DNA of 64,000 nucleotides. Source: Escherichia coli O157:H7 (GTDB lineage: Bacteria > Pseudomonadota > Gammaproteobacteria > Enterobacterales > Enterobacteriaceae). Positions within the stretch are counted from its first letter, which is position 1. Each line of letters begins with the position of its first letter. This document shows, piece by piece, positions 48,001-51,000 of this stretch. The stretch lies in the NCBI RefSeq assembly GCF_013167455.1, contig NZ_CP038328.1, one strand, 5' to 3'. The position numbers are program-made.

Positions 48001-51000
48001 GCTTTCATCCTGACCGCCGCCTCACTACGACCAATCAGACTGCCGATGCATTTTACCTTCATTGTTAGTATCATGATTTCAGGCCTGCACCATCCGCTCA
48101 TTGCCCGGACTTCCGACAAATCCCGGCAACCATATCCCGGTGCTTGTTCAGCTCCCGCAGCGCGGCGCAGACTCGCTCCCACTTCTGGACATGATTCTTC
48201 GCCCTACGCAGTTCGCGATTTGCCATATGCAGCGATGGCAAAATCAAATCATCTTCTCGCGTTGCAGTAAACGATGGCAGCGACTGCACAATGTCCGCCA
48301 CAGTTTCTGTTTTAATATCTTCCTGTGTTGCATCTTTCTGTACCGGTAACGCAACACCGGCTGGCTGAGGAAAGGCTTTACCATCGGTTTCCGCTACCGA
48401 TTCAACTTTCGGCTCTGCTGGTAAATTATCACCTGGTATGCAGTAACGAATTTTACCGTTCTGGTTTACGCGAATCAGACGACCTTTGCTGATTGCCATT
48501 GCCAGCGTTGAAGCAACTTTGCGGGATGTTGTACCGAACAGCGTAGCCAGTTCATCCGCCGTTTGTGGTCCGCGTTGTTCAATCGTCGCGGTTAAATCGC
48601 ACTCTGAGATTTTCGCTTCTGTTGCCGTGGTGGTTTCTTCTGGCGCTGGCTGTTCCTGCTGAACGTTGTTATCAGCCACACGCCAAGTGTATACGCTTTT
48701 ATCAACGAAGCCAGCCTTTTTCAGTTCCCACAGCTCGTTCAGTACTTCTTCACGACTGATATCAAGTCGCGCAGCCAGCTATACCGACGTGGCTTTTCCC
48801 ATCGCTTTCAGTGCGTCAAAAACAGTCTCCATAAATTTCCTCCCGGTAAAAAATCACTTCTCAACTCAAACAAAACCAGCCGCTTTCCGGCGTTCATATT
48901 CCTGTTTCAGCAACTCAATTGGCGTTGGCCCCGACGGGCGTTTGGGGGCCGCCAGTTGTCGCCGGACTGGCGGAACGCTCAGGCCGTTACTAACATGCTT
49001 TGCCCATTTCGTCAGTTGCCGTTCTGCAAGCCGTTTTAATTCCCCTTCGGTCATCTGGCGCTCAATCCCCTTTGAACGCATCTCGAGGCAAATGTGATAC
49101 AGCACAGGCTGAGACCACGGGTACTTATCACTTCCGTCGTATCGCCAGGACTCATTGCGCCAGCGGCGGTACTCCTCCATCACAGCATCCACCGTCAGAC
49201 CGAATGGATTGGCTCCGCTTTTCGAAATCAGTGCCACAAACTCAGCCAGGTCCGGAGGCCATGTTTCACCCGCCCGGCAGCGGTCCATGCACTGGCGGCA
49301 GACCTGCCGGATTTGCTGCTCAGTCATCGCGCCAATCTGTGCAATCCAGAGCTTCGAAGGTGCGGCCCCGTTCTTCTGGATCCAGCGGTTCGAATAAACC
49401 ACCCCCATGAGTTCCCACAGCTTCCAGGCCGTTTCCGTCGCTGATAAATCCGTTTTCACGTTCCCACTGCTCACGTGCTGCCCGAATTTCCTGAACTGCC
49501 CGTGATGCGGTGCCACCTGGTGCTGCTGCATGGTTTACCCCTTTGCTGACTGGTTTAACCTGCGCCCTGACGTGATTTACGTGACGGGCGAATTTCTGCT
49601 CCCACTGAATCTGCGTAAACACTTTCCCCTCCGCTGCCCAGTAGTCCCGGAAGGCGGCAAGTTCAGCAGGTGTAAATTCTGTCTCCGGCAAAGCCATCCC
49701 CCACAACGCAGCCCGTCGTCGAAAATCCCGTGACGGATACCAGCTATCGCTCATCGGGAATTTTCCGATGGGTTCGCTCAGGCCATACAGGAATACAGGG
49801 GGGGCTGCCTGTAACGACAAAACTTCCTGCTCACTGGTCGGAGCACTCTCGCGTGCGTTATGTGTGGGGTTTAGATCTTTGGGTTCCTTTGGGTTCCGTG
49901 ATCCGTTTTTGGGTGTCTTTGATGGAAAATTTGGGTGTCTTTGGTTATTTTCCATGCAGCTAAGAGTTCTGTTTTTGGGTCTGTTTTGTGCTGAAACATA
50001 ACCATTTTCGGTACTGTTTTTATTAACAGCACCAATTTTACCCACCTTTAAAGACTCCCGTTTTTGGGTGTATTCAGGCTCGGCAACACTTTCTTCTACA
50101 CCGATAAGTCGGTACACCACAATTTGCTTTGTTCTGCCTTTTCTCTCACCGGTATCAACAATTAACCCAATCTCCATCAGGTGTCGTAAGCTGTCCTGCA
50201 CAGTCTTTTTGTTCAGTTCCGTTACTTCTGCCAGTGCAGATACAGACGGGTATGCACACAAATCGGCACCGCACATATCAGCAAGCCAGGTCAATACTGA
50301 CTTACTGGATGAACTGCCGGTTTTCACCTTTTTAGCCCATCGTAGTGCATCGATACTCATACGCCCCCCTGGCAGACATTTGTTTATCTGCAAAGTAATA
50401 TTGGTATTGCTGACGATACGCGTGCTTGAAAGCAATAGCTTTTTCTATAAGCTCGTCAGTCTCACGTTCCACAACAACTGGATCCGCAAAAAGCAGCCCG
50501 GACTCCACCACATCGCCATATTCTTTGTTTAACCCGGCGATCATGTACGTAATGCTTTTTCCGTCAGTAATTTCACAATACAATCTGAAATCGCTGATCC
50601 GGATAGCCTCCATAATTGCCGGAATCAGCGCCGTGAATTTGTCACGCTTATCTCTGGTGTCGATAGCTTTCCAGCGTTCGAATATCTTCACCCGGTTAAC
50701 GCCCAGCGCCCGTTGATCAACCTCGCCATCATTAAACGTGACGCGTTGAACATCGATGTTCGGGCGTTCTTTCAGAGCCCAGAATGCTTCCGTGATTAAT
50801 ATCGTCGCCTGCTCCTGTGTCATTCCTGGTCGGCATACCCAGGTATCCAGAGCCTCACAAACCTGTTCAGTGGTGATTTTCATTGTTCAACCGCCCCGCC
50901 CGCTTTGCCTTACGATATTCGTCATAAACTTTGGGGTCGTACTGAAGTTCCCCGCCGGATGCCTCTTGCAGGCGCATCGCGCGACCTTCAGGAACCAGTT

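Follow-up and report, generated by a model that had tools for sequence, protein, structure and literature searches.

What has become of a prophage gene that meets a stop codon after 17 codons, and then reads on to its end in the same frame? The question is raised by a DUF1627/YdaW-like gene on the minus strand of a 64,000-nucleotide stretch of Escherichia coli O157:H7 (assembly GCF_013167455.1, contig NZ_CP038328.1; this whole stretch is hereafter referred to as the window). A sequence-only reading of this DNA had reported an in-frame amber codon (TAG) at positions 48779–48781, codon 18 of a gene starting at 48832, and had offered three explanations for it: a very recent nonsense mutation, a translation restart at a GTG at position 48679, or suppression. 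The sequence and its translation bear out these coordinates and this description. As developed below, I interpret the TAG as a lineage-fixed, pseudogenising nonsense mutation belonging to the ordinary decay of prophage Sp9, with a probability of roughly 0.86; the O157 genomes sampled with the allele all share it.

The minus-strand frame from 48832 to 48098 consists of 244 codons followed by TGA (48100–48098), and is broken only by the TAG at codon 18. Its native start is the ATG at 48832–48830, with a GGGAGG motif upstream, at 48844–48839. Past the TAG I counted 226 further sense codons before the TGA, in agreement with the approximately 230 first estimated, and over 245 codons this frame contains two stops (the TAG and the terminator), as opposed to 9 and 17 in the other two frames. 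Beyond the stop, the GTG at 48679 is indeed the first canonical start codon in frame. The elements of the locus are listed here, with the complementarity of start sites to the anti-Shine-Dalgarno (anti-SD) sequence given as a duplex energy, and with gene models from the Sakai annotation and from the Prokaryotic Genome Annotation Pipeline (PGAP).

48098..48832, minus strand: DUF1627/YdaW-like gene, complete frame (sequence, PF07789, phrog_630, 901-nt comparison with relatives)
48839..48844, minus strand: Shine-Dalgarno motif GGGAGG of the native start (sequence; anti-SD duplex −10.3 kcal/mol)
48782..48832, minus strand: residual 17-codon open reading frame (ORF) METVFDALKAMGKATSV upstream of the TAG, the same as the N-terminus of intact orthologues
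48779..48781, minus strand: amber TAG at codon 18, from GAG (Glu) by G to T at window position 48781, on alignment with orthologues
48776..48778, minus strand: CTG abutting the TAG, a non-canonical start codon (anti-SD −3.0 kcal/mol) at which the annotated 226-residue PGAP model WP_077744273.1 begins
48686, minus strand: synonymous ACC to ACT change (Thr49) downstream of the TAG, private to the window (901-nt alignment)
48677..48679, minus strand: GTG, codon 52, first canonical in-frame start past the TAG (ORF 48098..48679) and start of the Sakai model ECs_5720 (193 residues)
47937..48101, minus strand: 54-codon ORF starting at an ATG that shares bases with the DUF1627 stop (ATGA, from the junction sequence), annotated as hypothetical protein WP_001505071.1 (phrog_30109, E-value 6e-17)

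With codon 18 repaired, the 244-residue protein matches the Pfam family DUF1627 (PF07789) over residues 84–236, with an E-value of 7.8e-93 and a score of 308.8 bits that is well above the gathering cut-off of 28.1. It also matches phrog_630, of function not known, over residues 1–242 in PHROG, while sub-threshold Pfam matches are seen to HTH_20, TrmB and HTH_Crp_2 (residues 4–46) and to a FeoC-like family (residues 80–126). The family is small, with 178 matches at E ≤ 0.001 in an exhaustive search of 50%-identity representatives, many of these being N- or C-terminal fragments. The 901-nt locus is 99.9% identical to E. coli O157:H7 genomes, and the site corresponds to the lambda-like prophage Sp9 of strain Sakai, which adjoins ompW. 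On the coding strand, the gene order is cI-like (opposite strand), cro, ydaT-like, O-like (with a DnaT domain), P, the DUF1627 gene, the 54-codon ORF, a fimbrial pseudogene, paa, hokD and IS1203. The DUF1627 gene is therefore an accessory gene of the early right operon, lying 3' of the prophage replication genes and directly after O-like and P.

The aligned relatives reveal what codon 18 used to be. Position 18 is Glu in all 117 ungapped sequences among the 120 closest cluster representatives, where residues 1–50 are near-invariant, and Glu18 is retained in 37 of 43 distant homologues (21–67% identity; full-length members picked from the 178, the shorter ones being left out). No stop is found at this position in any of the 117 close or 43 distant sequences. 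The distant members share the start Met, or begin within a few residues of it, and have in common the motif METV.DALKAMGKAT. The sequence-only reading had anticipated CAG, TAC or TGG in orthologues; GAG was found instead. An alignment of the 901-nt locus from the window, Sakai, EDL933 and PPompW_14040 contains only two variable columns, codon 18 and position 48686. The TAG allele of Sakai and EDL933 differs from the GAG allele of PPompW_14040 by one base across the 901 nt, and between Sakai and the O55:H7 strain DEC5A the TAG base is the sole difference over the 2481-nt DEC5A locus (∼2.5 kb). At position 48781 the base is T in the window, Sakai, EDL933 and the sorbitol-fermenting O157 strain 493/89, and G in DEC5A and PPompW_14040. 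The intact protein, WP_000450692.1, is encoded with GAG and at its full 244 residues in DEC5A and in PPompW prophages (e.g. LC567818); the DEC5A prophage is syntenic, and its O-like, P and downstream proteins are identical. A sense codon in orthologues, in a frame that is otherwise collinear and one base away, is what a nonsense pseudogene should present, and judging from these alignments the ancestral codon is GAG (Glu18), with a single G to T transversion having given TAG.

The same comparison bears on whether the stop could be a sequencing or assembly error, or whether the gene starts downstream and the frame upstream of the TAG is open by chance, either of which would have undone the original observation. 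I give next to no credence to this. The same TAG-centred 81-mer recurs in 292 complete genomes that were assembled independently, and the truncated 226- and 193-residue models are each found on at least ∼1000 contigs in a large protein collection. The 17 codons 5' of the TAG are identical in intact orthologues, the N-terminus being conserved from Met1 down to 21% overall identity, and the sole strong Shine-Dalgarno motif belongs to the native ATG. Since the repaired protein matches DUF1627 and PHROG 630, and the upstream codons are identical to those of intact orthologues, the continuity of the frame across the TAG is not due to chance; what the frame upstream of it encodes is the genuine N-terminus that the family conserves.

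The distribution of the two alleles, counted as exact 81-mers centred on codon 18 in complete RefSeq E. coli records, qualifies the claim of a very recent mutation. The TAG 81-mer occurs in 292 records, including Sakai, EDL933 and 493/89, and the sampled ones are all O157:H7-labelled or unlabelled strains with genomes of 5.39–5.60 Mb. The GAG 81-mer occurs in 266 records, including O55:H7, O145, O111:H8, O26, strain H19 and others. Of eight sampled matches at 98.8% to the GAG query, seven come from genomes that either bear the O157:H7 label or are unlabelled but similar in size to O157, as would fit the TAG allele; EC12 (4.95 Mb), the eighth, probably carries some other single-base variant. 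This is a nonsense mutation, recent on an evolutionary scale and absent from DEC5A, but it is not private to the strain analysed. On the favoured reading, the TAG arose after the separation of O157 from O55:H7, before or near the split between sorbitol-fermenting and classical O157:H7, and has been inherited clonally since.

Some further variation was observed around the gene. Among the complete E. coli genomes of RefSeq there is no 100% match to the 901-nt query. Strain 493/89 has the TAG too, together with a mosaic patch of 15 substitutions and a 1-nt insertion at the equivalent of window positions 48824–48878, running from the end of P across the intergenic region into the opening codons of the DUF1627 gene; the pattern suggests recombination with a paralogous prophage. 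In the same strain a 1-nt deletion, equivalent to window position 49804, frameshifts the O-like gene. In each O157 genome, 4–7 places resemble the 901-nt query; they are presumably paralogues of DUF1627 or P in other lambdoid prophages.

To place the stop within the protein, a structural model was generated with AlphaFold2 on the family alignment (mean predicted local distance difference test, pLDDT, of 81.7). It predicts two winged-helix domains joined by a disordered linker, and a long low-confidence acidic or proline-rich segment that precedes a C-terminal hairpin:

48677..48832, minus strand: first winged-helix domain, codons 1–52, with helices 4–11, 16–23 and 27–40 and strands 43–46 and 49–52 (AlphaFold2; block-mean pLDDT 94–98 for residues 1–50)
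48440..48604, minus strand: second winged-helix domain, codons 77–131, retained by any downstream restart product (AlphaFold2; block-mean pLDDT 88–97)
48104..48232, minus strand: C-terminal helical hairpin, codons 201–243, with helices 201–230 and 232–243 (AlphaFold2; block-mean pLDDT 85–96 for residues 201–240)

Residue 18 lies in helix 16–23 of the model, which is helix 2 of the first winged-helix domain. This domain, which starts at Met1 and is still encoded by the window DNA apart from its break at codon 18, is the most conserved segment of the family in both the close and the distant alignments. In the C-terminal part, P199 and R209 are conserved, and the predicted hairpin is a possible oligomerisation module.

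A restart at the GTG at 48679, or at the CTG, would yield a functional N-truncated protein with its second winged helix, DUF1627 region and C-terminal hairpin in place. In its favour, the Pfam DUF1627 match lies wholly downstream of the GTG, the model treats the hairpin and the second winged helix each as a folded unit of its own, and the Sakai curators and PGAP both model shortened coding sequences. The initiation signals speak against it. I computed the anti-SD duplex energy for each in-frame ATG, GTG, TTG, CTG and ATH codon, and the native ATG at 48832 is the strongest of all candidates at −10.3 kcal/mol, compared with −3.0 kcal/mol for the CTG at 48778 (codon 19) and −0.9 kcal/mol for the GTG at 48679; no in-frame start downstream of the TAG has a usable Shine-Dalgarno sequence. 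There is, likewise, no canonical start with such complementarity near the stop. The GTG is 99 nt past the TAG, which is a long distance for termination-reinitiation in bacteria, and E. coli initiates very poorly at CTG. Inside the gene, a promoter scan gave no promoter-like site on the minus strand. Finally, the domain that would be lost is the best conserved part of the family, and every aligned full-length member starts at or near Met1. A functional restart product is consequently unlikely, and the GTG restart that had been suggested finds no support.

A second way of rescuing the gene would be to read through the TAG, whether by means of a suppressor tRNA or as a natural effect of the codon context, at a level giving useful amounts of the full-length protein. 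The frame is undamaged on either side of the TAG, and lambdoid prophages do carry tRNA genes, Sp9 having two. However, the tRNAs identified by ARAGORN in the 64-kb window have the anticodons TCT (Arg) and CAT (tRNA-Ile in PGAP, of the Ile2 type), neither of which reads UAG, and a suppressor tRNA in the prophage was rejected as a candidate on these grounds. No CUA tRNA or recoding RNA was found in the window, and a scan of it at Rfam gathering scores returned no RNA structure family or recoding element near 48.8 kb. The absence of a stop at codon 18 from all the close and distant homologues also means that there is no conserved recoding site. Wild-type E. coli is not known to carry amber suppressors. 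Suppression, as it had been put forward, is thereby left with nothing to support it, and I regard useful read-through as very improbable.

Under the nonsense-mutation reading, ribosomes loaded at the strong native ribosome-binding site would stop after 17 residues, in helix 2 of the first winged helix, and initiation at the native ATG should give nothing but the METVFDALKAMGKATSV peptide. No full-length protein with its tandem winged helices would be made and, given where the stop lies and that restart signals are lacking, a functional product would be absent. Internal initiation, if any, would be weak, with a product missing the most conserved domain. The remaining 226 codons would be an untranslated relic that looks intact for want of time for further changes. 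As the ATG of the 54-codon ORF overlaps the DUF1627 stop codon, translational coupling to that ORF would probably be lost as well. Rho-dependent polarity downstream of the TAG was also considered and set aside: the C/G ratio is only 1.05–1.17 between ∼48672 and 48433, with no convincing rut site, so that such polarity is possible but not indicated.

The intactness of the downstream frame might be taken as a sign of selection. A passage of PMC2806823 gives the divergence between O55:H7 and O157:H7 outside recombinant regions as 0.06%, at which ∼0.4 substitutions are expected in the 678 nt past the TAG. An undamaged frame is therefore expected without selection, and I rejected this inference as uninformative. 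According to passages of PMC2669165, the repressor of Sp9 is missing its peptidase domain, and genes for recombination, the portal and the head are disrupted; spontaneous excision nonetheless continues, and other prophages help to package Sp9 DNA. Because the gene sits in a prophage that is already short of several functions, ordinary prophage decay is the natural explanation. The many truncated representatives of the family, together with a shorter copy in K-12, also suggest that this gene decays frequently in resident prophages.

Several points weigh against this interpretation. Both Sakai and PGAP model a shortened protein and set no pseudogene flag, although this reflects annotation rules and is not evidence. 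The search for a suppressor tRNA spans the 64-kb window and not the rest of the host genome, and of the 292 TAG-bearing records 11 were inspected by name. A low-level product may arise by internal initiation or by natural UAG read-through. Lastly, fixation in a very successful clone fits hitch-hiking, but is also compatible with weak positive selection.

A further reading is that the amber allele is not neutral, either through a truncated partner that acts as a dominant negative or with altered function on the DUF1627 paralogues encoded by other O157 prophages, or through the loss itself having been selected in the O157 ancestor. In the former case, a low-level product of internal initiation may retain both the second winged helix and the hairpin at the C-terminus. 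In the latter, the loss may, for instance, remove a conflict of the prophage with a host defence system, or one between lambdoid prophages resident in the same cell. The notion of a host defence system stems from K-12 ydaW, which can counteract a retron toxin: expressed from a plasmid, it came up with other prophage genes as a blocker of RcaT (retron-Sen2) toxicity when a plasmid library was screened, as reported in a passage of bioRxiv 10.1101/2020.06.22.160242. I consider a non-neutral allele of either kind quite improbable.

Neutral decay by a nonsense mutation is a known kind of event, and the allele is already in the Sakai and EDL933 reference genomes; its biological weight is small: a prophage known to be defective has, in one of its accessory genes, acquired a further inactivating point mutation. 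Its practical implications lie elsewhere. The annotation of the gene is inconsistent (193 residues from the GTG in Sakai, 226 residues from the CTG in PGAP), and neither version is flagged as a pseudogene. Both models fit a coding sequence around the stop, and are not evidence of initiation; a disrupted gene of 244 codons would be the better annotation. The G to T change is a candidate clone-marker single-nucleotide polymorphism, which in the genomes sampled separates O157 (493/89 included) from O55:H7 and other enterohaemorrhagic E. coli with the prophage allele. In addition, what appears to be a natural null allele in O157, beside an isogenic intact allele in O55:H7, offers a resource for the uncharacterised DUF1627 family.

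The remaining features of the window lie on either side of this gene:

48866–49531, minus strand: P-like gene, longest ORF of 221 residues from the ATG at 49531 (ORF scan)
47399–47932, minus strand: fimbrial-protein pseudogene, frameshifted and with an internal stop (PGAP), two genes downstream of the DUF1627 gene
46142–46291: sok antitoxin RNA beside hokD (Rfam)
44513–45726, minus strand: IS1203/IS629 copy (IS3 family) between hokD/sok and nin-like genes (annotation)
40243–41301, minus strand: prophage DNA methyltransferase, uninterrupted 353-codon frame (sequence)
39652–39860, minus strand: STnc100 small RNA (sRNA) (Rfam, 175 bits)
39591–39650, plus strand: AgvB sRNA (Rfam, 56.6 bits; gathering score 56)

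The longest P-like ORF overlaps the O-like gene by ∼210 nt, and is annotated shorter (462 nt in PGAP, 423 nt in Sakai). Downstream of the fimbrial pseudogene is paa/adfO, at 46480–47238. The IS1203/IS629 copy contains an ALIL frameshift pseudoknot at 45329–45445 (Rfam), and several O157 genomes do not have this element at 44513–45726 (95% cover in two pieces). The DNA methyltransferase is annotated as frameshifted, by a 1-nt gap, in the otherwise near-identical NE122. The STnc100 and AgvB matches adjoin the prophage tRNA pair at 39970–40202.

The last question is how this gene compares with systems that have been described. No sequence relative was found in the PDB (best E-value of 0.51). By structure, the best Foldseek matches there are ScpB chains (E-value of 3.6e-4, TM-score of 0.20–0.29, 14–21% identity). 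ScpB has two consecutive winged-helix domains, as in the AlphaFold2 model, but has neither the hairpin of helices at the C-terminus nor the long disordered linker seen in the DUF1627 model. The Foldseek matches are to generic winged-helix proteins (ScpB, MarR) at TM-scores of ∼0.2–0.3, and I rejected an assignment of function by structure; the likeness to ScpB is best taken as that of the generic winged-helix fold between a model and known structures, and is not evidence of a common function.

The defects reported for Sp9 by Asadulghani et al. (2009; PMC2669165) concern the same prophage, but the table of that paper deals with essential phage functions, whereas the DUF1627 gene is accessory. 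Neither the Sp9 passages of that paper, which do not name this gene, nor the pseudogene passages of PMC2806823 mention codon 18, and the literature found on DUF1627 or ydaW consists of passing mentions. In other phages, DUF1627 genes adjoin DnaC-like or P genes, and a passage of bioRxiv 10.64898/2026.05.13.724894 locates DUF1627 genes near the PasA and PasC sRNA loci.

The closest parallel is YdaW of the K-12 Rac prophage, which is alike in family (PF07789, phrog_630) and in its place directly after lambdoid or Rac-type replication genes. It is listed as a predicted transcription factor in a passage of PMC9308461, and its alleviation of RcaT toxicity, an effect that belongs to the K-12 gene, is the sole functional hint for the family. 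The K-12 protein is shorter than that of O55:H7, according to the same source, whereas the defect of the Sp9 copy is instead a single amber codon at residue 18.

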